Part shown: positions 14,075 through 39,845 of the stretch, piece by piece | Numbering within the stretch: the first letter of the stretch is position 1 | How the letters are laid out: every line of letters begins with the position of its first letter | Sequence record: SRR20825019_2588 | Reading direction: 5' to 3' (one strand) | Length of the DNA: 64,000 nucleotides | Program-made: the position numbers and the translations under genes | The notes under the pieces: model-generated | Told to the model about the DNA's origin: nothing | Database searches by the model: none | What the model saw: the letters and a program-made list of their open reading frames with translations, nothing else

Positions 14075-14133
14075 TACTCCCTTGGAAGTACTGCCACAAG
14101 GGAATTATCAAGTTCGTCTTAACACGCTAAGTT
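14075..14133 (+). promoter_or_regulatory. 7-2-7 box plus sigma70 promoter of the APC permease
   Basis: TACTCCC-TT-GGAAGTA, 14 bp, TTATCA-N17-TAAGTT. Confidence 0.7.
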
Positions 14134-14247
14134 CGAATCAGACTTTCTGAAGTCTCAAAGGGGAAAATAGCTGCATCGTTTTCTTCCTGGAAATAAACAG
14201 CCAAAGTCCCGGCAACAAGACTGTCGAACTGAAGCGGAGATGACACT

Positions 14248-15738
14248 ATGAGTGATATTAAGCTGAACAATACAGGCACCGGTTCCGGTGCAGCGCAGGC
14301 AGGCTCGGTGCATGAGGATGAATCCCTGGAACGGTCGATTGACTGGAAACAGGGACTCGCCATAGCATCGGGCGTGCCATTATTGATTTTACCTTCGCTG
14401 GGTTACTTCCCGATGTGGGTCGCAGCTGCTGCCATCCTGGTCTGGGGGCTGTCTGTGTTACAGGGATTTATGCAGAACCTGGCTTATGCTGAATTGGCGA
14501 CAACCTTTCCAAAATCATCCGGTCTGCCGGGCTTTGCCCAGCATGTGTTTAAAACCAGGGATTACCAGGGTGACTTTGACAAAGGCAAGCTGATAGGCGG
14601 TTTCAGTGCCTGGAGTTACTGGTTTGCCTGGAATCCGGTACTGGCTATTTTCGCCATACTGGTCGGCAGTTATTTACACGGACTCTTCCCCGGTCTGGGT
14701 GAGCTATTCACTGAATATCAACTCTCACTGCTCTCCGGCGGGGTTATTTTCAGCGGTTTGATTGCGATCAATTACTTTGGCCTGAAAGACAGTGCGGTGC
14801 TGGGTTATGTGCTGGCCGGTGTGGCGCTGGTGCCCCTGGTCGTGATGACGCTGACACCCTTTGCTACCGGTGCGGTAGATATCAGTAACATCAGTAATAA
14901 CTGGTTACCGGTCGACTGGTCCTGGGATTTGCATCATATTCTGATTCTGTTCGGACTGTTTGCGATTGCCCAATGGAGTGCCTGTGCGTGGGAAACAGCC
15001 GCGATTTACGGACCTGAGTATAAAAACCCGTCGAAAGATGTACCCAAAGCCTTGTTTGTCTGTGGTGCCATCTGCCTGTTGTCGTTTGTGTTGGTACAGG
15101 CTGCAGTCATTGGTGTACTGGGCGTAGAAGGCGTGCTGGCCGAACCCATTTCGCCGATGATTCCGGTGGCAGAGGCGGCCTTTGGCGCATCGGGTTCGGT
15201 GATCGCTATTGTCATGCTGATTGCGGCGATGGTGTTGATTATCCAGACGGCCTATCTCGGTTCCGCTCGTGCCATGCACTCCATGGCCACTGAAGGCAAT
15301 CTGCCGCGGGTTTTCGGCAGAGTCAATAAACATGGCACACCGGTGGTAGCCATGGTGGCGATCGGCCTGTTTAACCTGGTACTGATTTCAATGGGAACAC
15401 CGGCAGCCATTCTGGCCGCTTCAGCGATTGGCTATACCTGTGCCAATGGCATCAGTCTGTTTGCCTACGTCAAAGCGAAAAGTCATCCAAACTTCGCTGA
15501 ACTTGAAAGACCGTTCAGCGCACCCAAAGGCTGGAAAAATGTGGCCTTGATGTTCGGTTTATTCAATATTCCGCTGTGTCTGATTGGGGTGGTGTATCTC
15601 AACAGTCTGGAAGTCGGCTGGTTCTCCACCTGGATTGGTTTCATCGTACTGTCACTGTATCTGCCGTTGTGGCTTTACTCTCAGTACGAAACCCGCCAGT
15701 CAACTGCGTTGGCTGCAGCCGTGCCGGCAGGTGAGTGA
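14248..15738 (+). CDS. APC-family permease, probable methylated-amine permease
   Basis: About 12 TM segments; LERSIDWKQGLAIASGVPLLILPSLG, AYAELATTFP, WETAAIYGPEYKNP. Confidence 0.85.
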   Translation: MSDIKLNNTGTGSGAAQAGSVHEDESLERSIDWKQGLAIASGVPLLILPSLGYFPMWVAAAAILVWGLSVLQGFMQNLAYAELATTFPKSSGLPGFAQHVFKTRDYQGDFDKGKLIGGFSAWSYWFAWNPVLAIFAILVGSYLHGLFPGLGELFTEYQLSLLSGGVIFSGLIAINYFGLKDSAVLGYVLAGVALVPLVVMTLTPFATGAVDISNISNNWLPVDWSWDLHHILILFGLFAIAQWSACAWETAAIYGPEYKNPSKDVPKALFVCGAICLLSFVLVQAAVIGVLGVEGVLAEPISPMIPVAEAAFGASGSVIAIVMLIAAMVLIIQTAYLGSARAMHSMATEGNLPRVFGRVNKHGTPVVAMVAIGLFNLVLISMGTPAAILAASAIGYTCANGISLFAYVKAKSHPNFAELERPFSAPKGWKNVALMFGLFNIPLCLIGVVYLNSLEVGWFSTWIGFIVLSLYLPLWLYSQYETRQSTALAAAVPAGE

Positions 15739-15739
15739 G

Positions 15740-15928
15740 ATGGCCTTGTTAAAGCTGTCCCGAATCCTGAAGTCTGTTTATAACAGTCTGCTCAGCCTGA
15801 TGGTTAACGGCTGGATGTCGGGCAGTTACACCGGGGCAGTCCTGACCGGTGAATATCATTCGGTCAACACCGTGCCGGGTACAGATTCAGGCTTGCCTGG
15901 TCCGGATTCACAGCTTGAGCTGATTTGA
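15740..15928 (+). CDS. Possible 62-aa small protein
   Basis: ATG 1 nt after the permease stop, AGGTGAG RBS-like sequence, ends just before a terminator; no recognisable motif. Confidence 0.4.
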   Translation: MALLKLSRILKSVYNSLLSLMVNGWMSGSYTGAVLTGEYHSVNTVPGTDSGLPGPDSQLELI

Positions 15929-15943
15929 TTCAGCCATAGCCAT

Positions 15944-15977
15944 TGCCGGTATCGAAGTTGGATACCGGCATTTTTTT
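15944..15977 (+). terminator. Rho-independent terminator
   Basis: TGCCGGTATC-GAAGTTG-GATACCGGCA followed by T7. Confidence 0.85.
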
Positions 15978-15986
15978 AGCGTTTCG

Positions 15987-16045
15987 TAACCCCTAGGTAG
16001 TAATCCTTCTTTGGAATTGTTGGCAGGGGTGACGGAATAGATAAT
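15987..16045 (+). promoter_or_regulatory. 7-2-7 box plus sigma70 promoter of the leader RNA/folE2 operon
   Basis: TAACCCC-TA-GGTAGTA, 14 bp, TTGTTG-N17-GATAAT. Confidence 0.75.
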
Positions 16046-16051
16046 GAAACT

Positions 16052-16200
16052 GAAGCTGCTTTGATTAAAGCGATTCAGCTTCTTCATGGTTATCCTCTAA
16101 CCCGTTCTCTCGTTGGGACGTTGGGGGTGAACTGTCACAGCCGAGCCACTGTTCTCAATGGCATGTGACAAGGCAGTCGACAGTTCACCCTCCTTTTTTT
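16052..16200 (+). ncRNA. Candidate structured leader RNA (riboswitch/attenuator) or sRNA upstream of folE2
   Basis: 5' hairpin 16052-16082; anti-SD/anti-AUG tract 16083-16098; 14-bp stem 16123-16136/16179-16192 plus T7; competing helices. Confidence 0.55.
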
Positions 16201-16252
16201 GGTAACCACGAATAACAACGACTGGAAAGTCTATAAGATAAGGATTAGCGTT

Positions 16253-17059
16253 ATGAACCTGCCGCTCAATACTGGTCTGGAAGATGTTCAGAACACCCCC
16301 GATAAACGCCAGCTGGCTATAGACCAGGTCGGCATCAAATCCTTACGTTACCCGATTTTTTTCCGAAGCGATGAAGCTGGTCCGACCCGCGTGGTGGCTG
16401 ACTTCAGTATGTATGTGCGTTTGCCTCATCATGTGAAAGGCACCCATATGTCACGCTTTATTGAACTGCTGGAGAGACCCGAACAGGTTTTTGCAGTCAA
16501 TCATATGCATACCTTCATGCGTGACATGCTGGATCTGCTGGAAGCGGAAAACGGCCATGTCGAAATGCGCTTCCCGTTCTTTCTGGCCAAGTCGGCACCG
16601 GTGTCTGGTGTCACTAGCATGATGGACTACGATGTGACGCTCAAGGCTGATATTGGAGAGCGCTTTGCACTGACGGTCAAAGCCGAGATCCCGGTGACCA
16701 GCCTCTGCCCCTGTTCCAAGAAGATTTCTGCCTATGGTGCTCACAATCAGCGTTCGCTGGTCACGGTGGAAGTTGAAGTTGATGACAGCATGAGCCTGGA
16801 TCAATTAATTCGAATGGTTGAAGAACAGGCATCAAGTCAGCTCTATGGCCTGCTCAAGCGTCCGGATGAGAAATTCGTCACCGAATATGCCTATGACAAT
16901 CCGAAGTTCGTGGAAGACCTGGTTAGGGATATCGCCGGTGCGCTGGACAAAGCCTCTGCCATTGGCGGCTTCCGGGTCGAGTGCGAAAACTTCGAATCGA
17001 TTCACAATCACTCTGCCTACGCCATGATTGATCGTTTGTCAGGAGACCGTCATGAATAG
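16253..17059 (+). CDS. folE2: GTP cyclohydrolase I type IB (FolE2)
   Basis: KGTHMSRF, VTSLCPCSK, GAHNQRS, LLKRPDEK.VTE.AYDNPKFVED, ESIHNHSAYA; start moved to ATG 16253 (AGGA RBS). Confidence 0.93.
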   Translation: MNLPLNTGLEDVQNTPDKRQLAIDQVGIKSLRYPIFFRSDEAGPTRVVADFSMYVRLPHHVKGTHMSRFIELLERPEQVFAVNHMHTFMRDMLDLLEAENGHVEMRFPFFLAKSAPVSGVTSMMDYDVTLKADIGERFALTVKAEIPVTSLCPCSKKISAYGAHNQRSLVTVEVEVDDSMSLDQLIRMVEEQASSQLYGLLKRPDEKFVTEYAYDNPKFVEDLVRDIAGALDKASAIGGFRVECENFESIHNHSAYAMIDRLSGDRHE

Positions 17060-18212
17060 TCCGACCCTCCCCTTTGCGCCCAAACCGGGCCAGACTGCGA
17101 TTTCACCGATTGAGGACATCATCGCCGATATCCGTCAGGGCAAAATGGTGGTACTGATGGATGATGAGGATCGTGAAAATGAAGGCGATCTGATCATGGC
17201 TGCGGATGCGGTTGATGCGGCGGCCATTAATTTTATGGCGATGCATGGCCGTGGTCTGATTTGTCTTACACTGACAGAAGCGCGCTGCCGTCAGCTTGAA
17301 TTACCGTTGATGGTAAAAAATAACGGGACTGGACTGGGCACTAACTTTACCGTGTCGATTGAAGCGGCTGAGGGCGTCACAACCGGTATTTCCACGGCAG
17401 ACAGGGCCAGAACGGTTCAGGCAGCAGTCGCCAAAAATGCGCAAGCAACAGATATTGTCAGCCCCGGTCATATTTTCCCGCTTCAGGCGCAACAGGGCGG
17501 GGTGCTGGCTCGAGCCGGTCATACCGAGGCCGGTTGTGACCTGAGTAAACTGGCCGGGCGCGAACCCGCGTCCGTTATCTGTGAAATCATGAATGATGAC
17601 GGCAGCATGGCAAGACTGCCGGACTTGCTAAAGTTTGCAGATAAACATCAGCTCAAAGTGGGCACGATTGCCGACCTGATCGAATACCGTCGTCGCAATG
17701 AGCGTCTGGTTGCTTTTGAAGATCGTCGTTATATCAGCACTTTGTACGGCAGCTTTGAGATGGTCAGCTATCGTGATCTCACTTCAGACTTAACCCATGT
17801 GGCGCTGATTTGTGGTGAGCCACAAACTCAGAATGCCACCCTGGTACGGGTTCATGCCCCGATCAATAACTTTGATTTTCTGGATAACCAGCGTCACGGT
17901 CACACCTGGAGCGTCACCGAAGCCATGCAGCATATACAGGCAGCCGGTGAAGGGGTCCTGTTGCTGATCAAGGGCGATGAACAGGAATGGCAGGCACAGG
18001 TTGAAGGCGAACGTCACTTTGAAGAAGAGTATGTGCTCAAGCACTACGGCATTGGTGCCCAGATTCTCAAAGAGTTAGGCATCGGCCGTATGCGGTTGAT
18101 GACCTGGCCCAGAAAACTGCCCTCGATGAGTGGTTTTGGCCTTTCCGTCGAGGAGTATGTGCTGCCTGAAGATTTGAGCGAACGGGCGCTGGCTGATTTA
18201 TCACGGGCTTAG
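17052..18212 (+). CDS. ribB: 3,4-dihydroxy-2-butanone-4-phosphate synthase fused to a degenerate GTP cyclohydrolase II domain (RibBX type)
   Basis: [37 protein letters not shown]. The C-terminal domain lacks the Zn-binding Cys motif of RibA. AGGAG RBS before ATG 17052. Confidence 0.9.
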
Positions 18213-18221
18213 GAGAGCCGG

Positions 18222-19555: not shown

Positions 19556-19569
19556 ATCTCGTTAAGCAA

Positions 19570-19612
19570 GTGAGGACGACCTCACCGTGCTATTTTCGTC
19601 GGGGACGGCCCC
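19570..19612 (+). ncRNA. Guanidine-II (mini-ykkC) riboswitch
   Basis: Two hairpins with ACGR loops, GTGAGG-ACGA-CCTCAC and GGGG-ACGG-CCCC, immediately before the AAGGAG RBS of an SMR gene. Confidence 0.92.
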
Positions 19613-19626
19613 ATAAGGAGTGAATC

Positions 19627-19941
19627 ATGGCTTGGGTGGTACTGGTGATAGCAGGATTACTGGAAGTGGTCTGGGCAGTGGGACTGAAATATTCGGACGG
19701 CTTTACCCGGTTGTGGCCGAGTGTATTTACTGTGCTCACCATGTTGCTGAGTTTCTGGCTGCTGGGACTGGCGATGCGTTCACTGCCGGTCGGTACGGCT
19801 TATGGTGTCTGGGTCGGCATTGGTGCAGTGGGCACGGCGATTTACGGCATTATGTTTCTGGCTGAACCGTCGAGTTTTGTCAGGCTTGCCAGTGTTTGTC
19901 TGATTTTGACCGGCATAGTGGGTTTGAAAGTATCAGCCTAG
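19627..19941 (+). CDS. gdx: SMR-family guanidinium exporter Gdx (SugE)
   Basis: [46 protein letters not shown]; 104 aa; riboswitch upstream. Confidence 0.92.
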
Positions 19942-19970
19942 CTGATAAACGCCTGATCGAGGAGAGTAAA

Positions 19971-20081
19971 GTGTCTGAATTCTGGGGATATATGGGGGCC
20001 GATGTCGTGGCGATTATCACGATAACCCTGCTCAGTGCGATCGCCTTGTATCATGCTCGGCTATTTGTCAGCCGAATGTGA
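19971..20081 (+). CDS. 36-aa single-TM small protein
   Basis: GAGGAG RBS then GTG: MSEFWGYMGADVVAIITITLLSAIALYHARLFVSRM. Confidence 0.55.
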   Translation: MSEFWGYMGADVVAIITITLLSAIALYHARLFVSRM

Positions 20082-20209
20082 GAGCTTGTCCTGTCAACGT
20101 TTGTTGTCGAGACTGAAAAGATTGTGTCTTTGCCTGCACGCTGCCATGCTAAATGAACGACCTGAAACAGCTTAAACGGTTATAAGGTCAGGGAATATCG
20201 GATTGAAAT

Positions 20210-21907
20210 GTGCAACAGCCACCACTAAACGATAATCAGGGCCGCGACACCGACACGGAGGTTAAATCTGCGGCTTTTTCTTTTCATCGCAGCATTAACT
20301 GGACCGGCGCTTTCTGGGTTGCCAGTGGTGTTCCGGCGCTGGTTCTGTTCTCAATGGGCGCAATCGCTGCCACGGTGGGCAAACCTGCCTGGCTGGTGTG
20401 GCTGATTTCGATAAGTTTCGGTTTTATTCAGGCTTTTACCTACGCTGAAATTGCGGGTTTGTTTCCTCATAAGACCGGGGGGGCGTCGGTGTATGGGGCA
20501 GTTGCCTGGATCAATTACTGTAAACCTGTCGCACCGCTGTCTATCTGGTGTAACTGGATTGCCTGGGGACCCGTGCTGGCCATCGGCTCCGGTCTGGCTG
20601 CAGGTTATATTCTGACCGCGCTGTTTCCTCCTGATGCGGTCATCAATACCTGGCAAATTACTTTACTTGATTTAAGTACGCTGAAAGTCGGACTGACCTT
20701 ACGTATCAATGCCACCTTCATCATTGGTGCGGCACTGATGATTATTGTTTTTGCGATTCAGAATGGCGGTATCCTGCGCTCAGCCAGAGCGACCATGATT
20801 CTGGGTATGACCAGTCTGGTGCCGCTGATGGTGCTGGCACTGGTGCCGTTGATTACCGGTGATCTGCCTGCAGAAAACTTCTTCCCTCTGTCACCCTTGG
20901 CCTACGACAGTGAAGGGCATGTGATGGCAGGGGAATGGAATCTGGATGGCTGGGTACTGATGGCCGGTGGCCTGTTCATTGCAGCATGGTCGACCTATGG
21001 CTTCGAAACCGCTGTTTGCTATACCCGGGAGTTCAAGCATCCCAGAACCGACACTTTCAAAGCGATTTTGTATTCCGGTTTACTTTGTATTGTTGCTTTT
21101 ACGCTTATCCCGCTCGCGTTTCAGGGGCATCTGGGGCTGGGGCAGCTGGTGCAGCCGGAAACCCTGAATACGGCCGGTCAGGTCATTGCACCGGCTGAGT
21201 ATGGTGGCATGTTGTCCGATGATATTTACAGCGGTATGGGGGTCGCCAGTGCGCTGGCAGGTATCGTGGGCGGCAGTGGCTTTATCGCCAATCTGTTTGT
21301 CGTGATGCTGGTGCTGGCATTACTGCTGTCGATTATGACCACGATGTCGGGATCCTCACGGACGCTATGTCAGGGCGCAGTTGACGGCCTGCTGCCGCGT
21401 TATTTATCCAAGGTGAATGAGAATGGGGCGCCGACCCGTGCCATGTGGACCAATCTGATCATCAATCTGATGCTGCTCAGTATGTCCGATTATGTGTTTC
21501 TGCTTGCCGCCTCCAATGTCGGCTATATCATTTTCAATTTCCTGAACCTGAATGCCGGCTGGATTCATCGGATTGATCGACCCAACTGGGATCGACCCTA
21601 TAAAGCGCCGACGAGTCTGATTGTGGCCGGCACGATCCTGGCCTACATCAATATGCTGTTGATGGGGCTGGGCGCCAATGTCTGGGGGGGCGGTACGCTG
21701 ATGAGCGGATTGATAGTGGCGAGCCTGATTTTCCCCATTTTTGTCTGGCGGCACTATGTGGTGGATCGGGGCCGATTCCCCAGAGCGATGCTTGAAGATA
21801 TTAACCTCAGCCGGACAGACTATACCGTCAAGCGTGCCGGTGTCCTTCCTTATCTGGCCCTGCTCGGCGGTGCTGTCGTTTTGGCTGTGGGCAGTTACCT
21901 CAGCTGA
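20210..21907 (+). CDS. APC-family permease, probable methylated-amine permease
   Basis: RSINWTGAFWVASGVPALVLFS, YAEIAGLFP..GGASVYG, YGFETAVCYTREFK; about 14 TM segments. Confidence 0.85.
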   Translation: MQQPPLNDNQGRDTDTEVKSAAFSFHRSINWTGAFWVASGVPALVLFSMGAIAATVGKPAWLVWLISISFGFIQAFTYAEIAGLFPHKTGGASVYGAVAWINYCKPVAPLSIWCNWIAWGPVLAIGSGLAAGYILTALFPPDAVINTWQITLLDLSTLKVGLTLRINATFIIGAALMIIVFAIQNGGILRSARATMILGMTSLVPLMVLALVPLITGDLPAENFFPLSPLAYDSEGHVMAGEWNLDGWVLMAGGLFIAAWSTYGFETAVCYTREFKHPRTDTFKAILYSGLLCIVAFTLIPLAFQGHLGLGQLVQPETLNTAGQVIAPAEYGGMLSDDIYSGMGVASALAGIVGGSGFIANLFVVMLVLALLLSIMTTMSGSSRTLCQGAVDGLLPRYLSKVNENGAPTRAMWTNLIINLMLLSMSDYVFLLAASNVGYIIFNFLNLNAGWIHRIDRPNWDRPYKAPTSLIVAGTILAYINMLLMGLGANVWGGGTLMSGLIVASLIFPIFVWRHYVVDRGRFPRAMLEDINLSRTDYTVKRAGVLPYLALLGGAVVLAVGSYLS

Positions 21908-21986: not shown

Positions 21987-22045
21987 TACTACCTAGGAGG
22001 TAACCCCTCTTAGGAATTGTTGAGCCTCTCCCCAGTTTAGACAAT
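21987..22045 (+). promoter_or_regulatory. 7-2-7 box plus sigma70 promoter of the tmd operon
   Basis: TACTACC-TA-GGAGGTA, 14 bp, TTGTTG-N17-GACAAT; extra half-site TACTCCC at 21965. Confidence 0.78.
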
Positions 22046-22047: not shown

Positions 22048-24273
<2,226 letters not shown>

Positions 24274-30290: not shown

Positions 30291-30349
30291 TACTCAAAAA
30301 GGAGTACGCCATGATGGGAATTTCAGCACAGGACTGATTCCGATATGTT
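30291..30349 (+). promoter_or_regulatory. 7-2-7 box plus sigma70 promoter of the dmm operon
   Basis: TACTCAA-AA-AGGAGTA, 14 bp, TTTCAG-N17-TATGTT. Confidence 0.72.
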
Positions 30350-30390: not shown

Positions 30391-31539
30391 ATGAGCAATT
30401 CTACCCAACCTATCGAAGCCGTTGATTCGGCAATCACCCGTAACTCAGTGCTGAATGAACGTCATCGCGAGCTTGGATCAAAGCTGGATGATGTTATCTG
30501 GGGTATGCCAATCCCTCAGCATTACCATACTGATCCCCACGATGAGGTGGTCGCGGTCAGAACCCGTGCCGGTCTTTATGACGTATCAGCGTTGAATATT
30601 GTCAATGTCAGTGGGCCCGCTGCGTTGAAAGTGCTGGACCAACTTGTGGCGATTGATGTCACCGAACTGGAACCCGGCACGTCCCGGTTGGCAGCTGAAG
30701 TCAATGAGGAAGGCGCCCTGGTCGACGACATCATGATTATCTGTGATGCCAAGGACCAGTATCGTATTTCTCACGGTGGCGGTTGCACGCAACAGACACT
30801 GGCCAGACTGGCCGAAGGTCAGGATGTGACGATAGAACAGGATTATGACGTACATATTCTGTCACTACAGGGGCCACGCTCCGTAGATGTGCTGAACCCT
30901 GAAGTCGATGTCGACCTGGCCAAATTACCTTATTTCAAACATGTCGAAACACAGCTTTTTGGCTTTGATGTGATTATCGCCCGCGGTGGCTATTCCGGTG
31001 AGCGCGGTTACGAAGTCTATTGCAGCGCTAATGATGCGGTGCATCTGTGGGACAGCATTCTGGAAAAAGGCCATCGTTACGGCGTGATTGCTGCCTCCTG
31101 GGATTCACTTGACCTGACCCGCGTTGAAGCCGCCTTGCTGTTCTATCCATTCGATATGCCTGAGGGCGATACAACGCCGTGGGAAGTCAATATGAACTGG
31201 TGTATCGACCAGAACAAGAAAGGTGACTACGTCGGTAAAGACGCCCTGCTGAAACTGAAAGGCCGTGAACGTTTCAAACAGGCAGGCCTCGTTTGCCAGA
31301 GTAGTGAAGCCATGCCGGAAGGCGCCAAAATTATCAAAGACGGTAAGGAAATCGGCGTTGTCACCAGTGCCAGCTTTAGCCGTTACCTGATGAAATCGCT
31401 AGCGATGGTACATATCAAACCCGAGTTTTCACAACTTGGGACGCAGGTGGTAGTTGCCGCTGACACGCCGGTCAAAGCCCACGTTGTTAAGACTCCTTTC
31501 TACGACCCGATGCGTCTTCGTACCCATCCCGAACAATAG
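30391..31539 (+). CDS. dmmD: Dimethylamine monooxygenase-associated aminomethyltransferase (GcvT-like, THF-binding)
   Basis: AGLYDVS, LSLQGP, RGGYSGERGYE, RVEAAL, PFYDP; first gene of the dmmDABC order. Confidence 0.85.
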   Translation: MSNSTQPIEAVDSAITRNSVLNERHRELGSKLDDVIWGMPIPQHYHTDPHDEVVAVRTRAGLYDVSALNIVNVSGPAALKVLDQLVAIDVTELEPGTSRLAAEVNEEGALVDDIMIICDAKDQYRISHGGGCTQQTLARLAEGQDVTIEQDYDVHILSLQGPRSVDVLNPEVDVDLAKLPYFKHVETQLFGFDVIIARGGYSGERGYEVYCSANDAVHLWDSILEKGHRYGVIAASWDSLDLTRVEAALLFYPFDMPEGDTTPWEVNMNWCIDQNKKGDYVGKDALLKLKGRERFKQAGLVCQSSEAMPEGAKIIKDGKEIGVVTSASFSRYLMKSLAMVHIKPEFSQLGTQVVVAADTPVKAHVVKTPFYDPMRLRTHPEQ

Positions 31540-31599
31540 TAAAGACCCTGCCTGAGTCGTCACAGGGAGGTGACCGGGCAACAAGATGAGGAAAAAGCG

Positions 31600-32202
31600 A
31601 TGGAAAGAGGATATTGGATCAGAAGCAAACCCTTGTATGACTCACTGGTCTGGAAGCAACAGGCGACTGGTCATGTCGTTATCGCCCAGGGCGAAGGCGG
31701 GATTGCGGTACTGAAATTATTTCAACAAATGTGTCCCCGTGAACCAATCAAGTTGTTGTTTGCTGATGATGATGCTGCAACCAGAAAATACGCTGACATT
31801 ATTCAGTCACTGGTGCCGGAAGGTTTGCAGATTTGTGAGTCGGAAAAGGATGTTCTGGCCGAGCTCAGAAAGCAGTTACCTGACTGTCTGATGGGAACAC
31901 AGTTTTATGTCGCCGGCAGTGAAGCCTTTATCTGGGCGGTGATGGACGAACTGAAAGTCTATGGCGTGCAGGACAGAAACGTCGAGAAAGAGCTGAGTGG
32001 GACCCTGGCACGCTCAGTCTACTGCGTGCATTGCAAGACAACAGATAAAAACGTCCACCACAGCATTCACCAATGCAGTGGCTGTGGTCGTCACCTGTTT
32101 GTCCGTGATCACTTTTCCCGCAGGCTGGGCGCTTATATGGGCGTCATGGTCGATGCTGAGGAGCCGGGCAATATTCCGGCAGCAGAGGAGATTTATCCAT
32201 GA
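31600..32202 (+). CDS. dmmA: Dimethylamine monooxygenase subunit DmmA
   Basis: IRSKP.Y, YVAGSE.F.W, C-terminal CVHC..CSGC..LFVRDHFSRRL; ATG 31600 with GAGG RBS. Confidence 0.85.
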   Translation: MERGYWIRSKPLYDSLVWKQQATGHVVIAQGEGGIAVLKLFQQMCPREPIKLLFADDDAATRKYADIIQSLVPEGLQICESEKDVLAELRKQLPDCLMGTQFYVAGSEAFIWAVMDELKVYGVQDRNVEKELSGTLARSVYCVHCKTTDKNVHHSIHQCSGCGRHLFVRDHFSRRLGAYMGVMVDAEEPGNIPAAEEIYP

Positions 32203-33152
32203 GTATTTTGAATGTCAAAGTGGCTGAGGTGGAACAGGTGACCGATGTGGTCAAACACTTCACCCTGGTCCAGGAAAACGGTGAACCTTTACCGCGCTTT
32301 TCCGGAGGCAGTCATGTGGTGGTGTCGATGAATATCAATGGCCGTATCCACCGTAATCCTTACTCTTTGATGGGCTCGACTGCCAATACCGAGAGTTACC
32401 ATATTTCTGTCCGTAAGCAGGAAAACTCGCGCGGTGGCTCGGTATTCATGCATGAACAGGTCAAGCCTGGCGCCAGTCTGCAGATCACTTACCCGACAAA
32501 TCTGTTTGCGATTTCCAAAATGGGCCGTCGACACATTCTGATTGCCGGTGGTATCGGTATTACCCCGTTTATGTCGCAAATCTCGGATTTGAACCGACTG
32601 GGCTACGACTATGAACTGCATTATGCCTATCGTTCGCCAGAGAATGCGGCCTTCCGTGAACAGCTTGAAGCCATGTGCGGCGATCGCGTTCATTTCTACA
32701 TCGACAGTGAAGGCGAGCGACTGGATATTCCGGAATTACTTCGTCACCAGCCGCTGGGCACCCATGTTTACACCTGCGGGCCTGAACCGATGGTGAAAGC
32801 ATTGCATCTGCATGCCAAAAATCTGGGCTGGCCCGACAATCACGTTCACAGCGAAGAGTTTACCGCGCCGCCTTCGGGTGATGAGTTCACGGTTGAGCTG
32901 GCATTGAGCGGTATGGAAGTGACCGTGTCTGGCGATATGAGCATGCTGGAAGCCATGGAGGAAGCCGGTGCCGAGCCACCGTTCCTGTGCCGTGGCGGTG
33001 CCTGCGGCCGGTGTGAACTGGAAGTGGTTTCCTGCGACGGCGTCATTATGCATAACGACCATTATCTGTCCGACCACGAAAAATCCGAGGGCAGGAGCAT
33101 CATGCCGTGTGTATCACGTGCCAAGTGCTCAAAACTGGTGGTCAACCTTTGA
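32199..33152 (+). CDS. dmmB: Dimethylamine monooxygenase reductase subunit (PDR/VanB family, flavin + 2Fe-2S)
   Basis: NPYSL, SRGGS, AGGIGITP, YTCGP, CRGGACGRC..C. Confidence 0.88.
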   Translation: MSILNVKVAEVEQVTDVVKHFTLVQENGEPLPRFSGGSHVVVSMNINGRIHRNPYSLMGSTANTESYHISVRKQENSRGGSVFMHEQVKPGASLQITYPTNLFAISKMGRRHILIAGGIGITPFMSQISDLNRLGYDYELHYAYRSPENAAFREQLEAMCGDRVHFYIDSEGERLDIPELLRHQPLGTHVYTCGPEPMVKALHLHAKNLGWPDNHVHSEEFTAPPSGDEFTVELALSGMEVTVSGDMSMLEAMEEAGAEPPFLCRGGACGRCELEVVSCDGVIMHNDHYLSDHEKSEGRSIMPCVSRAKCSKLVVNL

Positions 33153-33159
33153 GGAATAA

Positions 33160-34215
33160 GTGATGAATATGGCTAAAAATATCGCATTTAAACAAGAAAC
33201 TTTCCGCGACGACTATACCTACAGCAACTCTGCAGAAGCGATTCGTCGTTTCCCGTTCCCGTTTGCTGAAGATGAATACATGTACAGCGTCAATATTGAA
33301 CAACATGACGGCGGTGCACCAGGTTCCGTATTTGAGCATGCTATCGATATTGATGAACACTACGTGGCGGAATGTGAAGACAGACGCATCACGCTGGAAA
33401 AAGACCCCGGCCGCTATATCGCATTGCCACATATGATGGATGCGCAGTGGGATATGGTGGAATTGGTGATGGAATCGCTTTCCACCGATTACCCGGACTT
33501 ATTCCAGCTGAGCAAAGATGGTGACAACTGGCACTGGATTAATAAGCCATTAAACATCGACCAAAAGTTCGTGTTTGGTGACGAGTCCACACTGCCTATG
33601 GATCCGTTTGAGTATGTTGGTCGTCAGGTTCAGGGCGACTGGGTGGTGATGGATCAACGTGATGATGATCTGTTTGCCGATATGGGTATTATCACCAGCC
33701 AGGCCGACTGGTCGCTGGCATTTGATGCCGGAATGTCTTTCAAAGAATGGCATGGTCCCGTACCACAGGCGAATGAACTGGGTATTTTCGATCGGGCGTT
33801 GAAATATCTGCTGCATTTGCAGTACGGCAGTCCTGTTCGACGCCTCAACTGGACTATGACCGTCAACCCGCGTCTGGATACCTCTCCGGAAGAATATCCC
33901 TTGTGGGGACCGGATAATGTCTCAGTCACCGCAGATAACGTGGGTCAAAAAGTGCATCTTCGTGTGGAGTTGCAGGCTTTGTTCAGGTTGCCTCGCAGTA
34001 ATGCGATGGCCTTCAGTATCCGTGGATATCTGGCCAGCATTGACGACTTAAAAACCTATCCACGCTGGGCTAAACGTCTGCGCCGGGTTCTCACCAATCT
34101 GCATCCCGACTTATCTGAATACAAAGGGCTGGATAGCTATCGGCAACTGGTTATCGATTATCTGGCACCGATGGATGATGGCGCGGATCTTGGGTTGGGA
34201 ACACATCCCGAATAA
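33160..34215 (+). CDS. dmmC: Dimethylamine monooxygenase heme subunit (DUF3445)
   Basis: RFPFPF..D.YMYSVN, ADWSL.FD.GM.F.EWHGPVP, RRLNW, LRVELQ.L.RLPRS. Confidence 0.88.
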   Translation: MMNMAKNIAFKQETFRDDYTYSNSAEAIRRFPFPFAEDEYMYSVNIEQHDGGAPGSVFEHAIDIDEHYVAECEDRRITLEKDPGRYIALPHMMDAQWDMVELVMESLSTDYPDLFQLSKDGDNWHWINKPLNIDQKFVFGDESTLPMDPFEYVGRQVQGDWVVMDQRDDDLFADMGIITSQADWSLAFDAGMSFKEWHGPVPQANELGIFDRALKYLLHLQYGSPVRRLNWTMTVNPRLDTSPEEYPLWGPDNVSVTADNVGQKVHLRVELQALFRLPRSNAMAFSIRGYLASIDDLKTYPRWAKRLRRVLTNLHPDLSEYKGLDSYRQLVIDYLAPMDDGADLGLGTHPE

Positions 34216-34283
34216 ACACCAAACAGAACGATGAAGTTGTAGTCAGGGGTAAATATTCACCAACCAAGAGGAAGGATTTAAGA

Positions 34284-35051
34284 ATGAAAAAATTATTAAC
34301 AATGATGGCTTTGGCGGGGACTGCAGTCACTGCCAATACCGCGGTTCATGCTGAAGAAGTTTCACCACACAGCTTCAGCTCCAATGTCGGCCTGTTCAGT
34401 TCCTATGTGTTCCGTGGCATTGACTATAGTGATGAAGATGTCGCTTTACAGGGCGGTTTTGACTATGCGCATGCCAGTGGCTGGTATGCGGGCGTGTGGG
34501 CGTCGACGCTGGAAGAGGATCTTAACGTCGGTAACAGCATTGAAGTCGATTTCTATGGCGGTTATTACCATCAGTTCACAGAAGACTTTGCTGTGGATGT
34601 GGGTCTGCTGCAGTTTTACTATCCGGACCGTGAAAAGTACAACGGAGAGGATTTTGATACAACCGAAGCTTATGTTGCTGCGACTTGGAAATGGTTTACC
34701 GCCAAATACAGCCGCACACTGACAGACTGGGGCGGCATCAATAATAAATCTGCCGGCATCGATGGCTATGCTAACGGTGACACAAAAGGTACGGGTTATT
34801 ATGAGCTGAACTTTGACTATGGCCTGCCGATGGGAATTAACTTTACTGCCCATGTGGGTCGTCTGGATGTTGAAAATTATAGCGACTTTGATTACACGGA
34901 TTACCTGATCGGCCTGAGCAAGGACTTTTCACTTGCCGGTTCGGAAGGCTGGACCGTGGGTGTGAATTATACCGACACCAATGCTGATGAAGATTGGTGG
35001 GGTGATCGCGGTGATGACCAGTTTATCGCCTATATCTCCCGCAGTTTCTAA
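34284..35051 (+). CDS. TorF-family (TIGR02001-like) putative outer-membrane porin
   Basis: Signal peptide; S.YVFRGI, ALQGGFDY.H.SGWYAGVWAS, EVDFYGGY; C-terminal Phe. Confidence 0.85.
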   Translation: MKKLLTMMALAGTAVTANTAVHAEEVSPHSFSSNVGLFSSYVFRGIDYSDEDVALQGGFDYAHASGWYAGVWASTLEEDLNVGNSIEVDFYGGYYHQFTEDFAVDVGLLQFYYPDREKYNGEDFDTTEAYVAATWKWFTAKYSRTLTDWGGINNKSAGIDGYANGDTKGTGYYELNFDYGLPMGINFTAHVGRLDVENYSDFDYTDYLIGLSKDFSLAGSEGWTVGVNYTDTNADEDWWGDRGDDQFIAYISRSF

Positions 35052-35134: not shown

Positions 35135-36532
35135 TTATATTGTTGTGTGGTCATTGATGACTTGCTCAAGGCCATGCTGAAGTGCCGAATAATCATCATT
35201 AGTCAGATCGATGATCACGCCTTCCAGGGTTAACAGTTCGTCACTGCCGGAAAAGATGCCTTTGCCCCGTTCCATGACCCATTTCACCTTATTGCTGCGG
35301 GTCAGAATACGGTAAATAATCTGGAAGCTGCGCTGTTTATTGATCTGGCTCTGAACATGCTCCCAGACACGTTGCTGATCGTCAGGGTAGATAAGCTGCA
35401 TATAGTTGAAGTGCAGCGAGTTAGTGATTTCATAGGGCTGGTATTCAGTGACTTCGAGACAACCTTCACTGACGAAGTCAAAGGTCCAGTTACGGTCATT
35501 TTTACAACGATAGAGCATGCAGGGGATATTGGGCATGATCATATCCGTGGCAGTGCGGGCATTGGCACGCAAACCGGCAGAAGTGAGTTTCATACGGCTG
35601 ATATCGGTCAGTGTGCCGATGATGCTGGTCCGCTCACCTTTGAGTCTGGAGGTGGTGGAGGCGCGCATTTCGAACCATTGAGACCGGCCGTTTTTGGCGA
35701 TCAGTCGCAGCTCGAATTGGCACTGCTGACGTTTACCCTCGGTGAGCGCATTGAGTCGGGCTTCGGCCAATGGGATGTCTTCCGGATGGATATATGAGAA
35801 TAAGGGTTTGTTCAGGCTTTCTTCGGGGCCGTAGTCGAGTAAGCGTTGCCAGGCGGGGTTGAGGAAAATGAAAGCCTGATCGACATCAATCTGAAACACC
35901 ACCTGTTCAATGCGATCAATCAGCGTGTGGTAAGTCAGCTCTTCGGCAGCGGTTTGTGAGGCGGGCTCAAGTGAACTGGTGGTGGTAAATTGCAGCAGAA
36001 ACTGATTCGTGGCCTCAGCAGCAGCCAGAGGAGATAATGACATATGAACGGGGATTGTCGTACCATCAACATAAAGCATCCTGATCACCATGGTCTCGGT
36101 GGAAGCCTGGTCACTCTGTTCACTGAACAAATCGGTCAACACCTGATGGCTGCTGGGGTGAACCAGATTGGTCAGGGGCATATCCGTGATGAAGTCACGC
36201 ATACCACTCATGCCCAGTTCTTTGAGAAAGGCATTATTGGCAAATTTGATGCTGTAGCCTTCGACCACCGCGGCCGGTGTCGACAGTTTGGTAGAAATAT
36301 CATGCCCCCAGCCAACGTGATCCAGCTTGCTGGGCTGGTTAGCGCTGAGGCTGCGCCGTTGAACCCTGGGATAAATATTGATGATTAGCAGTGCCGACAG
36401 AAACACAGCAAGCACCGATGCCAGCATCGACACATGGACTTTGAAAGGTGCGGTGCTATCCCACCAGAAGCCGAAAACCATCGCAAAAATGCCGCTAAGC
36501 ATGACGAGACAAAATAGTAATAAGGTCATCAC
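35135..36532 (-). CDS. Membrane-anchored triple-PAS protein with no output domain
   Basis: Two N-terminal TMs; PAS motifs (FANNAF..LVHP; FLNPAW..IHPED..W.E; FVSEG..IYPDD..YRI..KWV.E.G); ends shortly after the last PAS. Confidence 0.85.
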   Translation of the reverse strand: MMTLLLFCLVMLSGIFAMVFGFWWDSTAPFKVHVSMLASVLAVFLSALLIINIYPRVQRRSLSANQPSKLDHVGWGHDISTKLSTPAAVVEGYSIKFANNAFLKELGMSGMRDFITDMPLTNLVHPSSHQVLTDLFSEQSDQASTETMVIRMLYVDGTTIPVHMSLSPLAAAEATNQFLLQFTTTSSLEPASQTAAEELTYHTLIDRIEQVVFQIDVDQAFIFLNPAWQRLLDYGPEESLNKPLFSYIHPEDIPLAEARLNALTEGKRQQCQFELRLIAKNGRSQWFEMRASTTSRLKGERTSIIGTLTDISRMKLTSAGLRANARTATDMIMPNIPCMLYRCKNDRNWTFDFVSEGCLEVTEYQPYEITNSLHFNYMQLIYPDDQQRVWEHVQSQINKQRSFQIIYRILTRSNKVKWVMERGKGIFSGSDELLTLEGVIIDLTNDDYSALQHGLEQVINDHTTI

Positions 36533-36577
36533 GATTACCTTTCATTTCAGACCTTGGTCAGAAGAGCGCAATTAGTC

Positions 36578-38401
36578 ATGGCGGCAAAGCGAAATATTAT
36601 TCTCAGTTTCCTGAACAGCTTCAGCCGGCGGGCACTCTATGCCAAGTTGATTATGTTGTTACTGTGTGTCGCCACCAGCATTTTGTTGATGCAGGCGGGC
36701 ACCATCTTTCTGCTAGATTATATCCCTTCAAGCCAGTCAGCCATAAACAAAATCAACGAACAGAAGCTTTACTGGCACAGGCAACTCTCCCATGTTCAGG
36801 CGATACAGTTACAGGAAGCCAGTGCGACTTTTAAGTCAATGCAGCGACACTTTCTGGATACAGCGGATCCCGAAGTGCTATGGATGCTACGTCAGGACAA
36901 CCCGGAAGTGGTGGCGGCAGTCCACAAAGTAGAGCGTGAGCAGAAAAACTTTATTGATGTGGCCCAGTTTAATCTGCGGGTGACCGCGCAGTTACGCGTC
37001 GCTGAGCGGGTAGCCAGTGCCTACGATGAACTCGAAACTGCGCTGCATAACGACAGCAAAATCAAACAATCCATCATCGGCTTGCTGCAGGCTATCAGCC
37101 TGATTTTTGTGCTCAGTTGCATTCTGGTGCTGGCTGTCAGTGCCAGGAAATTGCTGGTAGAGCGTATCGATAATTTATTGGGCTTCATTCACCTAAAAAC
37201 CGGCGAAAAGCCTGAACGACGTGCTGTAGATGAGTTTGCTGAACTGGAACACCGCGTTTCTGAACTTTCTGCACAGATGGAAAGTTATGAATCAGAAGTC
37301 ACCTGGGCTCACCGAACCAGTGAACACATGCGGGTGTTGATTCGCGCCCAGGACTTTCTGCTTCAATTCATTGAAACCGCCAGTGAGGATGTACTCAGTG
37401 AACGCACCTTATTGAAATTCCTGTATTCACTGGAACGTACCATGAACTTCGCTAATGCGGCACTGATATACACTGATGATGCCGCTGTGATTGCCAGGGA
37501 ACGTATTATCTTTTCCCACCATAAACCGCCAGTCCTGAGTAATCAGATCTTCGATGAATTAATGCAGTCCGGCGTGACGACCTTTGACTATCGATCTGCA
37601 GACGATGATCAACTGAGTTGTCTGGGCGTGACTTTCTCGGGTGTCAGTAACGGCATTGGTGTGTTGCTGGTTGAAATGGAGCAGGGACGGTTTCTGGAAG
37701 ACTCTGAAATAAGAGTGTTGGAAATTACCGCTCGTTTGCTGGCCATGACAGCCAAGTATCAGAGTCATGATGAAGAGGGCAGGCGACTCGCGGTGCTCGA
37801 AGAACGGGCTTCGATTGCACGTGAATTGCATGACTCACTGGCGCAGTCACTGTCGTTCATGAAAATACAGGTGGCGCGTTTACAGTCCAAAACCAATGAC
37901 AGTGAACTGGCTCCGGTAGTACAGGAGTTGCGGGAAGGGCTGGACAATGCCTATCGTGAATTGCGCGAGCTGCTGACCACGTTTCGGGTTCATATGGATC
38001 TGCGAGGGCTGGGCTACGCCATCCAGGCGACAATTGATGAGTTCTCGCAGCGTTCGCAACTGAATATCAGTTTTGATAACCGCCTGGTCAATTGTCGTCT
38101 GACCGTCAACGAAGAATTTCATATCCTGCACGTGGTGCGTGAAGCCCTGTCGAATATTGTTCGCCACTCCGGGGCAAAGAATGTCACGATATTGATGCAG
38201 CTACAGGCCAGTGGTGAGGTCGAATTGATAATTGATGATGATGGTGTGGGTTACACACCGGCATCGAGCACCTATGATCACCATGGACAGGTGATAATGA
38301 AAGAGCGGGCCCAGTCGCTGGGCGGTGAGGTCGAGGTTATGGCAAGGCGGTATGGCGGCACGCGAGTGCACCTGTATTTCATGCCGAAATTAGCACAATA
38401 A
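36578..38401 (+). CDS. NarX/NarQ-like sensor histidine kinase (HisKA_3) with a degenerate P-box
   Basis: Two TMs, HAMP/GAF-like region, ERASIARELHDSLAQSLS, REALSNIVRHS, DDGVG, HG..IMKERA; P-box region reads AINKINEQKLYWHR. Confidence 0.88.
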   Translation: MAAKRNIILSFLNSFSRRALYAKLIMLLLCVATSILLMQAGTIFLLDYIPSSQSAINKINEQKLYWHRQLSHVQAIQLQEASATFKSMQRHFLDTADPEVLWMLRQDNPEVVAAVHKVEREQKNFIDVAQFNLRVTAQLRVAERVASAYDELETALHNDSKIKQSIIGLLQAISLIFVLSCILVLAVSARKLLVERIDNLLGFIHLKTGEKPERRAVDEFAELEHRVSELSAQMESYESEVTWAHRTSEHMRVLIRAQDFLLQFIETASEDVLSERTLLKFLYSLERTMNFANAALIYTDDAAVIARERIIFSHHKPPVLSNQIFDELMQSGVTTFDYRSADDDQLSCLGVTFSGVSNGIGVLLVEMEQGRFLEDSEIRVLEITARLLAMTAKYQSHDEEGRRLAVLEERASIARELHDSLAQSLSFMKIQVARLQSKTNDSELAPVVQELREGLDNAYRELRELLTTFRVHMDLRGLGYAIQATIDEFSQRSQLNISFDNRLVNCRLTVNEEFHILHVVREALSNIVRHSGAKNVTILMQLQASGEVELIIDDDGVGYTPASSTYDHHGQVIMKERAQSLGGEVEVMARRYGGTRVHLYFMPKLAQ

Positions 38402-38429
38402 TAAAAGTCAGATTTTTGAGATAAATATC

Positions 38430-39068
38430 ATGCATAACATCATAAGAGTATTGATAATCGATGATCACCCTTTATTCAGAAAAGGGGTGAGTCAGATTAT
38501 TTCGGATGACCCCAATTTTGAAGTGGTGGGTGAGGCGGCTTCGGGCCAGGAAGGACTGGATCTGGGAGAGGAGCTACAACCCGATCTGGTTCTGCTGGAC
38601 TTGAATATGAAAGGGATGGACGGTCTGGAAACCCTGCGTCGTTTTAAACAGACCGACTTGCTGGCACGTTATGTCATTTTGACAGTGTCTGATTCTGAAG
38701 ACGACCTGATGGAGGCGCTGAAATCGGGGGCTGACGGTTATCTTCTCAAAGATATGGAACCGGAAGATCTTCGTGCCAACCTGATGAAAGCGTCTGTTGG
38801 TGTAACGGTATTACAGGACAGCCTGACCGATGTATTGAAAAAAGCGCTGACGGAACCTGATACCAAAGTGAGCGTGGCCTCCGCCGGCCTGACTGATCGT
38901 GAGAACGAGATTCTGGATTGTCTGGCTGAAGGAATGAATAATAAGAACATTGCCCGCAAGCTGGGTATCAGCGATACCACGGTGAAAGTGCATATCAAGA
39001 ATATTTTGAGAAAGCTGAATTTAACCAGCCGTCTGGAAGCGGCAGTGTGGAAACATCAACAGAAATAA
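38430..39068 (+). CDS. NarL-family response regulator (REC + LuxR HTH)
   Basis: IDDHPLFRKG, LLDLNM, GYLLKDMEP, LTDRE.EIL...ISDTTVKVHIK. Confidence 0.93.
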   Translation: MHNIIRVLIIDDHPLFRKGVSQIISDDPNFEVVGEAASGQEGLDLGEELQPDLVLLDLNMKGMDGLETLRRFKQTDLLARYVILTVSDSEDDLMEALKSGADGYLLKDMEPEDLRANLMKASVGVTVLQDSLTDVLKKALTEPDTKVSVASAGLTDRENEILDCLAEGMNNKNIARKLGISDTTVKVHIKNILRKLNLTSRLEAAVWKHQQK

Positions 39069-39112
39069 AAAAAGCGCCGGTAGCAAGGGGTACGATGCTA
39101 CCGGCGCTTTTT
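39067..39112. terminator. Bidirectional terminator
   Basis: A-run-GCGCCGGTAGCA-loop-TGCTACCGGCGC-T-run between convergent genes. Confidence 0.85.
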
Positions 39113-39135
39113 CGAGCCTTTCTTTGTTTTGTAGG

Positions 39136-39477
39136 TTACAGGGGGTTACGTTGGCCTACAAAAAAACCAGTCGCTTTGTTGGGGGTTTCAAAGGTAATGG
39201 TTTCGCCGTCGGCAAAATACAAAACGTCACCGACTTTGGCATTGACTTTCTGACCTGACTCATCAGTGATAATGAACTCACCGTCAACGATGATTTTCAT
39301 TTCTTCATAGTCATAGGTGTAAACCAGTGGTTTATCACTCTTATTGAGGTGGAAAAAACCGGCACACAAGGTTTTATCTTTACTATCAGAAACAACGGTA
39401 TCACCCAGCGTGGCATTGACACCTTCAATACCCATGGACGGTTGATCAGCTTTAATCGCTTGTTGTACATATTTCAT
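39136..39477 (-). CDS. EutQ-like cupin protein
   Basis: YTYDYEEMKIIVDGEF..D..G...AKVGDVLYF..G..ITF; AGGAGG RBS. Confidence 0.85.
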   Translation of the reverse strand: MKYVQQAIKADQPSMGIEGVNATLGDTVVSDSKDKTLCAGFFHLNKSDKPLVYTYDYEEMKIIVDGEFIITDESGQKVNAKVGDVLYFADGETITFETPNKATGFFVGQRNPL

Positions 39478-39515
39478 ATCTTACCTCCTAAAATTTGTGT
39501 CATAAGACAGGTGCT

Positions 39516-39574
39516 ATTAAATCTGCATTAATAGCGACCAACAATTATTAAGAAGGCTTACTCTTTTAGGGGTA
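39516..39574 (-). promoter_or_regulatory. 7-2-7 box plus sigma70 promoter of the cupin gene
   Basis: Minus strand: TACCCCT-AA-AAGAGTA, 14 bp, TTGTTG-N17-TTTAAT. Confidence 0.75.
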
Positions 39575-39785
39575 GTCAATGCTTTGATAGTGGCTTCTAG
39601 AATCTATTGACGCTAGATATTGGCAAACTGCGATAGTCAGTGATGAGGAAGCTAACTGATGCGCTTTTGCCAAAACCCAAAAGTTTGAACAAAGTCGATT
39701 TATGCGATTCACTATCTCGAATTCGCGCACCCAGTCTGAACATCACTATTCCTGAACCTGCTCCTGCACTTGGATTGGCTTACTG

Positions 39786-39845
39786 TACTCCCAAAGTGTT
39801 AATTACTAGTGGTAATAGACACTTATCTGAGGCAGGGCATAGATT
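39786..39845 (+). promoter_or_regulatory. 7-2-7 box plus sigma70 promoter of the Amt-family gene
   Basis: TACTCCC-AA-AGTGTTA, 14 bp, TAGACA-N18-TAGATT. Confidence 0.65.

Follow-up and report, generated by a model that had tools for sequence, protein, structure and literature searches.

In Escherichia coli, the nitrate-sensing pairs NarX-NarL and NarQ-NarP act on inverted heptamers in a 7-2-7 arrangement, and the accessible part of PMC4549865 describes NarL sites of this form near -44 that activate napF and yeaR as well as a NarL site at -4/+6 that represses frdA. Among regulators of methylated-amine use, SecR of Aminobacter, an atypical NarL/FixJ-family regulator of the serine cycle, is needed for growth on methylamines (PMC13199381, in its accessible text), and Ruegeria pomeroyi employs TmaR, of the AraC family, and TmoR, of the GntR family (PMC13390433, likewise). 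For the trimethylamine (TMA) dehydrogenase route encoded by tmd, which operates with dmm and the N-methylglutamate (NMG) pathway in Methylophaga and Methylophilaceae, the chief methylotrophs of marine and fresh waters, the literature we searched, subscription journals and supplements excluded, describes no regulator. What is understood of methylamine regulation is termed 'fragmented' in a paper of 2026 (PMC13199381, Introduction). Here we analyse 64,000 nucleotides of sequence record SRR20825019_2588 (this whole stretch is the window below), in which the methylated-amine genes, as recognised by Pfam, form one long island and six promoters carry a NarL-type 7-2-7 box. A preliminary description, made from the letters of the window, had proposed that a local NarXL-like pair activates uptake, oxidation and cofactor supply for TMA and dimethylamine (DMA) through these boxes. 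Our analysis supports this interpretation at the level of sequence: we consider it probable that the boxes serve a NarL-paralogue system which travelled with the tmd/dmm island and activates the TMA and DMA genes through them.

Re-reading the window returned all six 16-bp boxes with the coordinates and letters originally given (Table 1). Exactly 14 nt, with GGAA, GTAA or ATAA at their end, separate each box from a -35-like hexamer, after which come 17 nt and a -10-like hexamer; this last spacing is the same at all six promoters, where 17-18 nt had been proposed. The core promoters are weak, a consensus promoter scan of 13900-16300 picking up none of the box-linked ones, as would be expected if the promoters were activator-dependent. 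Moreover, a constant distance between a box and a weak -35 downstream of it is typical of activation rather than repression. A sigma-54 or extracytoplasmic-function (ECF) reading of the GGAA-TTG element was dropped by eye; spacing and A/T-rich -10 boxes agree with sigma-70. At the gene for the Amt-family transporter, the longest open reading frame (ORF) begins with GTG at 39809 and contains the predicted promoter, so that the real start is probably the ATG at 39896, which follows AAGGAA. A terminator at 15944-15970 precedes the folE2 box.

Might such boxes be there by chance? Single matches to TAC-N10-GTA are certainly expected, at 4.71 per window; nine are found, a number that 3 of 100 shuffles reach. 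However, six of the nine lie wholly in intergenic sequence, which makes up 9.1% of the window (binomial P = 3.7e-5), and among the top-ranked of 704 arm/gap combinations this one has the highest intergenic share. A symmetric matrix built from the six boxes and run over the window finds eight sites at or above 14 bits, the level counted, whereas 200 block shuffles average 0.42 such sites and never exceed 3. Two of the eight lie outside the training set, at 488 (14.0 bits) and at 512 (21.4 bits, the top score of all), both ahead of the mgd operon. The next score is 10.9 bits and the remainder fall below 8. Chance is thus an unlikely source of the boxes, and we hold a compositional palindrome without function to be extremely improbable given their intergenic restriction, the independent top match at mgd, and two further observations detailed below: a geometry that stays fixed across three bacterial classes despite diverged flanks, and genome-wide confinement to the island in relatives. 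The 10.9-bit site, at 38435-38450, overlaps the opening codons of the regulator gene and may reflect chance or weak autoregulation; beyond it, the matrix scan shows nothing at that gene.

Box and layout recur in related genomes. We scanned 77 loci centred on tmd homologues with the six-box matrix and found a box ~95-115 nt ahead of the start of tmd in Methylophaga, Methylotenera, other Methylophilaceae, Methylovorus, Methylobacillus, Novimethylophilus, Zoogloea and Hyphomicrobium zavarzinii. Thirty tmd loci, spanning Gamma-, Beta- and Alphaproteobacteria, keep the order of box, 14 nt ending in GAGAA, GGAA or GTAA, TTGnnn, 17 nt and a GAnAAT-like hexamer, the aligned form being box-14-TTGTnn-17-GAnAAT. 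The box in this layout is the best-scoring one in 29 of the 30; the remaining locus, L005, achieves it via the second of two tandem boxes. Across the same loci the spacer of 17 nt varies freely, as do the leader and the flank upstream, and a functional operator-promoter unit would be expected to show just such fixed geometry amid drifting filler. Over all 160 box matches in the 77 loci, TTG starts exactly 14 nt past the box in 89, with 22 and 18 as the runner-up offsets among those compared (0 to 44 nt after the box). The first gene downstream of a box with TTG at +14 is tmd in 38 cases, a permease next to tmd in 27, folE2 in eight, the cupin gene in four and dmmD in three. At 23 distinct dmmD promoters TTTTCn takes the place of TTG at +14, and the promoters of the other permease gene and of the Amt gene keep the layout too; each target class has its own conserved -35 and -10 hexamers at identical distances. 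The idea of a methylated-amine regulon is borne out by this conservation across three proteobacterial classes, and by the Pfam domains of the boxed genes, which are methylated-amine genes; no nitrate-respiration gene was recognised by Pfam among the genes of the island.

A genome-wide motif search in relatives, which the preliminary description had called for, points the same way. We used a composite pattern (box, N10, RKAAT) on five relatives, with the reversed pattern as control. In the closest relative, G005, six of seven matches are counterparts of the window boxes (control: 2), and in G002 four of five lie in the island, the fifth being Amt-like (control: 3), so that the pattern is nearly island-confined in these two genomes. 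Matches falling in the island number 2/2 in G015 (control: 1), 3/5 in G018 (control: 0) and 4/9 in G007 (control: 3). Separately, about 1 kb from a composite match in G007, a Methylophaga, lie a third, shorter kinase (~405 aa) and a NarL-like regulator scoring 204 bits (G007:C1:58314-60338), which may constitute a further paralogous system with similar operators.

The island itself encodes a candidate for the protein that reads these sites. Its response regulator matches Pfam Response_reg (3.9e-29) and GerE (9.4e-22), scores 281.5 bits on the NCBIfam equivalog model for NarL (NF007935, cut-off 250) and 204.9 on that for NarP (below the cut-off of 343), and aligns along its whole length with the E. 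coli NarL structure (8.4e-64, 50.9% identity). The NarL recognition helix, already noticed at 38430, is indeed retained, reading TVKVHIK against TVKVHVK in E. coli NarL; the heptamer-contacting residues in this helix we take to be Lys188, Val189 and Lys192 of NarL. TVKVH(I/V)K is invariant in 36 of 36 island regulators, as are Asp57 and Lys107, both of which also align in E. coli NarL, while overall identity falls to 52%. In each of the five relatives the orthologue is the top match and the sole protein over the NarL cut-off (274-286 bits); in G005 the next regulator match reaches only 143 bits. The boxes, for their part, read as near-ideal NarL 7-2-7 sites, that of the cupin gene sharing 14 of 16 letters with an engineered NarL site given in the accessible part of PMC4549865. 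We infer that the island regulator binds them. It is conceivable that a protein encoded elsewhere recognises the palindrome and that the adjoining two-component genes have nothing to do with it, since the pairing of box and regulator rests on sequence and the genome scans cover relatives of the source strain. We nonetheless judge this very improbable: palindromes of exactly this form are what proteins carrying this recognition helix bind, the helix has stayed constant while the rest of the protein diverged, and the regulator, its kinase and a PAS protein are linked to the island as a trio in 30 of 30 loci.

Does this make the neighbouring genes a NarXL-like pair? The regulator is NarL-like and the kinase has a NarX/NarQ-like build, but the kinase scores far below the cut-offs of both families, at 210 bits on the NarX model (NF007896, cut-off 578, aligned over residues 39-612) and 205.5 on the NarQ model (NF008184, cut-off 553); these cut-offs are E. 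coli-trained, and nar-linked kinases of relatives fall below them too. The catalytic part is clear (HisKA_3 9.9e-15, HATPase_c 5.1e-9) and 37% identical to E. coli NarX, BLASTP having aligned the core only. Around it, a first transmembrane helix, a helical periplasmic domain, a second transmembrane helix and HAMP-like and GAF-like regions are predicted, though Pfam gives no HAMP or PilJ match, and a PDB sequence search with the whole kinase returned DesK-type cores only and no NarX/NarQ sensor domains. An AlphaFold2 model of the N-terminal 270 residues, computed from 22 orthologues (pLDDT 77.6), is all-helical. Its top seven Foldseek matches are NarQ sensor-transmembrane-HAMP fragments (E 2e-3 to 2e-2, TM-score on target 0.57-0.70), with the NarX sensor domain at ranks 23 and 28. 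VIA gives Z of 11.2-12.5 over 156-221 residues against NarQ, and unrelated designed four-helix bundles reach 12.9 over ~110. Because unrelated bundles score as high, the modelled sensor fold is consistent with NarX/NarQ, not proof of it.

What the kinase does not keep is the P-box. The column of NarX Arg54, which we take to be the nitrate-binding arginine of that motif, is occupied by K in the window protein and by K, R, E, Q, A or S across 15 orthologues. This bears on the possibility that the boxes are ordinary NarL sites under a canonical nitrate-sensing NarX-NarL, so that nitrate would govern methylamine use. Such a reading could draw on the resemblance of the boxes to the ideal E. coli NarL site, on the regulator passing the NarL equivalog model, and on the narXL pair that some relatives have beside narG: G002 and G015 carry a second kinase/regulator pair next to narK-narK-narG (L135, G002:C12:44000-63000; L136, G015:C5:32000-51000). 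The second pair, however, is a different one. Its kinases keep the P-box, and thereby provide a positive control for the P-box test, and its regulators carry TVKIHVQ instead of TVKVHIK and score ~230 bits on the NarL model, under the cut-off and below the island regulator. The boxes co-occur with the island module and not with nar genes, and G005 has boxes without a second NarL-like regulator. Nitrate control of this kind therefore seems very improbable to us. With the nar-linked pair alongside it in relatives, the island system is best seen as a paralogue that coexists with the true nitrate system, which agrees with the 'rewired' circuit of the preliminary description.

The third member of the module, missed in that description, is a membrane-anchored triple-PAS protein that has no output domain and is encoded divergently from the kinase. 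Its gene adjoins those for kinase and regulator in 30 of 30 kinase loci. With the kinase starting at ATG 36578, the gap between the two divergent genes is ~48 nt, so that their promoters must overlap coding sequence. A predicted complex of the whole PAS protein with residues 1-405 of the kinase scored 0.00, giving no support and weighing neither way. The trio lies beside tmd/dmm in clusters of varied gene order, including those of Methylovorus, Paraburkholderia and Methylibium. A near full-length orthologue of the kinase is present in 26 of 41 genomes (all 12 Methylophaga, 13 of Methylophilaceae type and H. zavarzinii), and every one of these 26 has a tmd box.

The two extra matrix hits tell a different story from the six promoters. 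They form a tandem pair in the mgd operon's leader, set 24 nt apart, 32 nt before the ATG at 559, and lie downstream of a near-consensus promoter (TTGACA 427-432, 17 nt, GTAAAT 450-455). Ten of 12 Methylophaga genomes keep them; none were found in the other two, nor in Methylophilaceae. Placed downstream of promoter and start, they suggest repression or tuning, as at E. coli frdA, and by that analogy the regulator probably represses or tunes mgd. A second conserved motif surrounds the same promoter (window 404-487) in both Gamma- and Betaproteobacteria, AAAAAGTTTC lying ahead of the -35 and GTTTCAT-N4-TGAAAC beyond the start. This motif is kept in Methylophaga and also in Methylophilaceae that have no NarL-type boxes there (loci L109-L131, upstream of mgdA), and is probably the operator of another NMG-pathway regulator.

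A half-site matrix slid over 99 promoters offers a glimpse of how the six promoters may be organised. Peaks at box positions 1 and 10 are built in. In addition, position 15 stands out in forward orientation (mean +3.3 bits, with 45% of the 99 promoters above 4 bits) and position 24 gives a weak reverse peak (-2.3 bits against a background of about -14); the composite consensus likewise has conserved letters within the 14 nt following the box, a heptamer that the preliminary description had passed over. This pattern suggests that a degenerate second 7-2-7 site shares its terminal TA with the strong one, a 2-bp overlap, and reaches as far as the -35. With transcription starts taken to lie ~7 nt after the -10, the centres would be at about -57.5 (strong) and -43.5 (weak), the latter close to the activating NarL sites of napF and yeaR.

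Under the reading we favour, activation of the TMA and DMA genes by the island system, the operators would be served by the three-gene sensory module of the same island. A signal, most likely a methylated amine or its breakdown product, would lead the kinase to phosphorylate Asp57 of the regulator, whose LuxR-type domain would dimerise on the strong box. The third heptamer, overlapping that box, together with the degenerate fourth abutting the -35, would provide the weaker second site, where a second dimer could contact RNA polymerase. The six weak sigma-70 promoters would thereby be activated, and with them two transporters for uptake, TMA dehydrogenase and its electron-transfer partners, DMA monooxygenase, flavin and pterin cofactor supply, and the cupin; at mgd, with its tandem boxes downstream of a strong promoter, the regulator would probably repress or tune instead.

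The few conserved periplasmic residues of the kinase are mostly aromatic or acidic (Asp47, Tyr48, Trp66, Trp102, Tyr149, Asp159), and Trp66 lies three residues past the column in which NarX has its nitrate-binding arginine. An aromatic and acidic make-up of this kind is seen in cation-pi pockets that accept methylated amines. A bolder version of our reading, in which a nitrate-sensor scaffold became a sensor of methylammonium cations within an obligatory three-component system with the PAS protein, acting on double 7-2-7 promoters, and in which module and operators were horizontally transferred with the tmd-dmm island across Alpha-, Beta- and Gammaproteobacteria, is tentative and on balance doubtful. 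Alternatively, the island regulator might bind the boxes in response to something else, be it nitrogen or C1 (one-carbon) status, formaldehyde, or oxygen and redox via the PAS protein, or it might mainly repress, with induction lifting the repression. No ligand has been assigned to the conserved PAS partner, an Amt-family transporter belongs to the regulon, and the mgd boxes are in a repressor-like position. Moreover, the inducer of the unrelated TmaR of Ruegeria is a catabolite downstream of methylamine and not an amine (PMC13390433, accessible text). Against this stand the single fixed distance of the six boxes from a weak -35, which is typical of activation, and the module's presence with tmd/dmm in every lineage examined, and we regard the alternative as rather unlikely.

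Several observations sit uneasily with an activator of TMA and DMA genes. The periplasmic domain of the kinase is poorly conserved overall, which also lends weight to the possibility of another signal; the ligand may be sensed elsewhere, for example in the GAF-like part or by the PAS protein. The position of the mgd boxes does not suit an activator, and if the signal were TMA or DMA, repressing the route for their product methylamine would not be obviously logical. In at least 27 related loci the APC permease corresponding to that at 20210 has a box, yet neither in the closest relative nor, by matrix scan, in the window is one found there. Of the 15 genomes whose kinase match differs in the sensor part or is absent, three to four show an above-threshold box close to tmd or dmmD, and in the others there is none. 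The per-locus counts lack phylogenetic independence, the composite pattern used genome-wide was derived from the window's own six sites, and the transcription starts, hence the centres at -57.5 and -43.5, rest on predicted -10 boxes. Finally, the genomes scanned are those of relatives; the source strain may have a canonical NarL or further regulators that share the helix.

How, then, does the system compare with those already described? With E. coli NarX-NarL and NarQ-NarP it shares the regulator (by identity, helix residues and the phospho-acceptor Asp and Lys), inverted heptamers in 7-2-7 form close to the engineered NarL site (PMC4549865, accessible part), and a HisKA_3 core; the N-terminus of the kinase, predicted as transmembrane helix, helical bundle, transmembrane helix and HAMP, would be consistent with theirs, and sites both upstream and downstream of promoters suggest that, like NarL, it is used as activator and repressor. 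It differs in a kinase that lacks the P-box and nitrate-binding arginine and falls far under the NarX/NarQ cut-offs, in a regulon of TMA, DMA and methylamine catabolism, transport and cofactor supply with no nitrate genes nearby, in the PAS protein that always accompanies the pair, in uniform promoters with a strong site predicted at about -57.5 and an overlapping weak one, and in its coexistence with a true nar-linked pair in two relatives. SecR is likewise a protein of response-regulator type with a helix-turn-helix of LuxR type that activates as a dimer on a palindrome, but has neither phosphorylation motif nor kinase, recognises CCYACCCG inverted repeats and serves C1 assimilation rather than primary amine oxidation (PMC13199381, accessible text), whereas the island regulator keeps Asp57 and Lys107, has a kinase and is associated with NarL-type boxes. 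The Ruegeria case offers a functional likeness, a master regulator encoded in the cluster that binds all methylated-amine operon promoters (tdm, dmm, gmaS-mgs, mgd), activating most genes and repressing one; TmaR and TmoR are, however, of unrelated one-component families, and the pathway there is tmm/tdm instead of tmd (PMC13390433, accessible text). The searched text of that paper has 0 mentions of two-component systems, LuxR or Methylophaga. The literature covered by our search describes no regulator of tmd or dmm that is of two-component or NarL type, and the preliminary description likewise presented the circuit as one not known to have been described.

What appears to be new is that methylated-amine catabolism reuses NarL-family DNA recognition, with an altered sensor and a PAS protein as additional partner. 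For a route with no regulator described in the literature searched, the analysis supplies three candidate genes, an operator, a promoter design and a list of targets. It may also serve as a natural example of a sensor scaffold and an unchanged DNA-recognition helix being reused for a new signal and regulon while the original system persists in the same cell. There is a practical warning for annotation, too: because the island regulator passes the NarL equivalog model and scores above the narG-adjacent regulator, automated annotation is expected to label it a nitrate regulator.

Table 1. Boxes, predicted promoters and genes of the window. Box scores are from the six-box matrix; related loci are those that share the layout.
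Feature	Coordinates	Strand	Remarks
Two tandem boxes, 5' leader of mgd/NMG operon	488-503; 512-527	+	14.0 and 21.4 bits; found by matrix, absent from the preliminary description
NMG pathway genes (mgd subunits, gmaS-like glutamine synthetase homologue, mgsABC-like)	559-10126	+	Pfam domains; names are a reading of the domains
7-2-7 box, APC permease	14075-14090	+	TACTCCC-TT-GGAAGTA; 20.7 bits; 4 related loci
Predicted promoter, APC permease	-35 14105-14110; -10 14128-14133	+	TTATCA; TAAGTT
Predicted target operons overall	14248-35051	+	Pfam
APC-family permease	14248-15738	+	Pfam; box at 14075
7-2-7 box, folE2 operon	15987-16002	+	TAACCCC-TA-GGTAGTA; 19.1 bits; 12 related loci
Predicted promoter, folE2	-35 16017-16022; -10 16040-16045	+	TTGTTG; GATAAT
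folE2-ribBA-EamA-(SMR)-APC permease operon	from 16199	+	Pfam; box at 15987
7-2-7 box, tmd	21987-22002	+	TACTACC-TA-GGAGGTA; 19.6 bits; layout kept in 30 loci
Predicted promoter, tmd	-35 22017-22022; -10 22040-22045	+	TTGTTG; GACAAT
tmd, then Fe-S/CCG protein, LRV/HEAT protein, etfB, etfA, ribH	tmd 22081-24273	+	Pfam; box at 21987
7-2-7 box, dmm operon	30291-30306	+	TACTCAA-AA-AGGAGTA; 16.4 bits
Predicted promoter, dmm	-35 30321-30326; -10 30344-30349	+	TTTCAG; TATGTT
dmmDABC and Gcw_chp	30391-35051	+	Pfam; box at 30291
Membrane-anchored triple-PAS protein	35135-36529	-	no output domain; divergent from kinase gene
Sensor histidine kinase	36578-38401	+	HisKA_3 and HATPase_c; longest ORF from TTG 36554, orthologues from ATG 36578
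NarL-like response regulator	38430-39068	+	REC and GerE/LuxR helix-turn-helix
Cupin gene	39136-39477	-	divergent; box at 39559-39574
Predicted promoter, cupin gene	-35 39539-39544; -10 39516-39521	-	TTGTTG (-35)
7-2-7 box, cupin gene	39559-39574	-	TACCCCT-AA-AAGAGTA; 17.1 bits
7-2-7 box, Amt-family transporter	39786-39801	+	TACTCCC-AA-AGTGTTA; 17.5 bits; layout also in L008, L009, L040
Predicted promoter, Amt	-35 39816-39821; -10 39839-39844	+	TAGACA (-35)
Amt-family transporter	probable start ATG 39896	+	box at 39786

The window has a G+C content of 51%, and the product of its tmd gene, TMA dehydrogenase, is 92-95% identical to Methylophaga counterparts. The island contains three APC-family permeases, and ahead of the one at 20210 a short membrane-peptide-like ORF occupies part of 19942-20209.

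Other elements in the region are of interest in their own right. The folE2 leader (16046-16200, plus strand, ~150 nt) is strongly structured (-57.3 kcal/mol, z -4.66) and terminates in a long hairpin and seven U immediately before the gene; it looks like an attenuator or a novel riboswitch, and a search of Rfam gave no credible family. Further along the same row of genes (folE2-ribBA-EamA), a Guanidine-II (mini-ykkC) riboswitch at 19568-19612 on the plus strand (45 bits against a gathering score of 32) precedes a gene of the small multidrug-resistance (SMR) family at 19627-19941, which is a known guanidine-exporter arrangement. Elsewhere in the window, sucrose-phosphate synthase/phosphatase, a second phosphatase, a PfkB-family kinase and an amylosucrase-like alpha-amylase stand in a row at 47060-52919, in what looks like a cluster for sucrose synthesis and turnover with no relation to the boxes.

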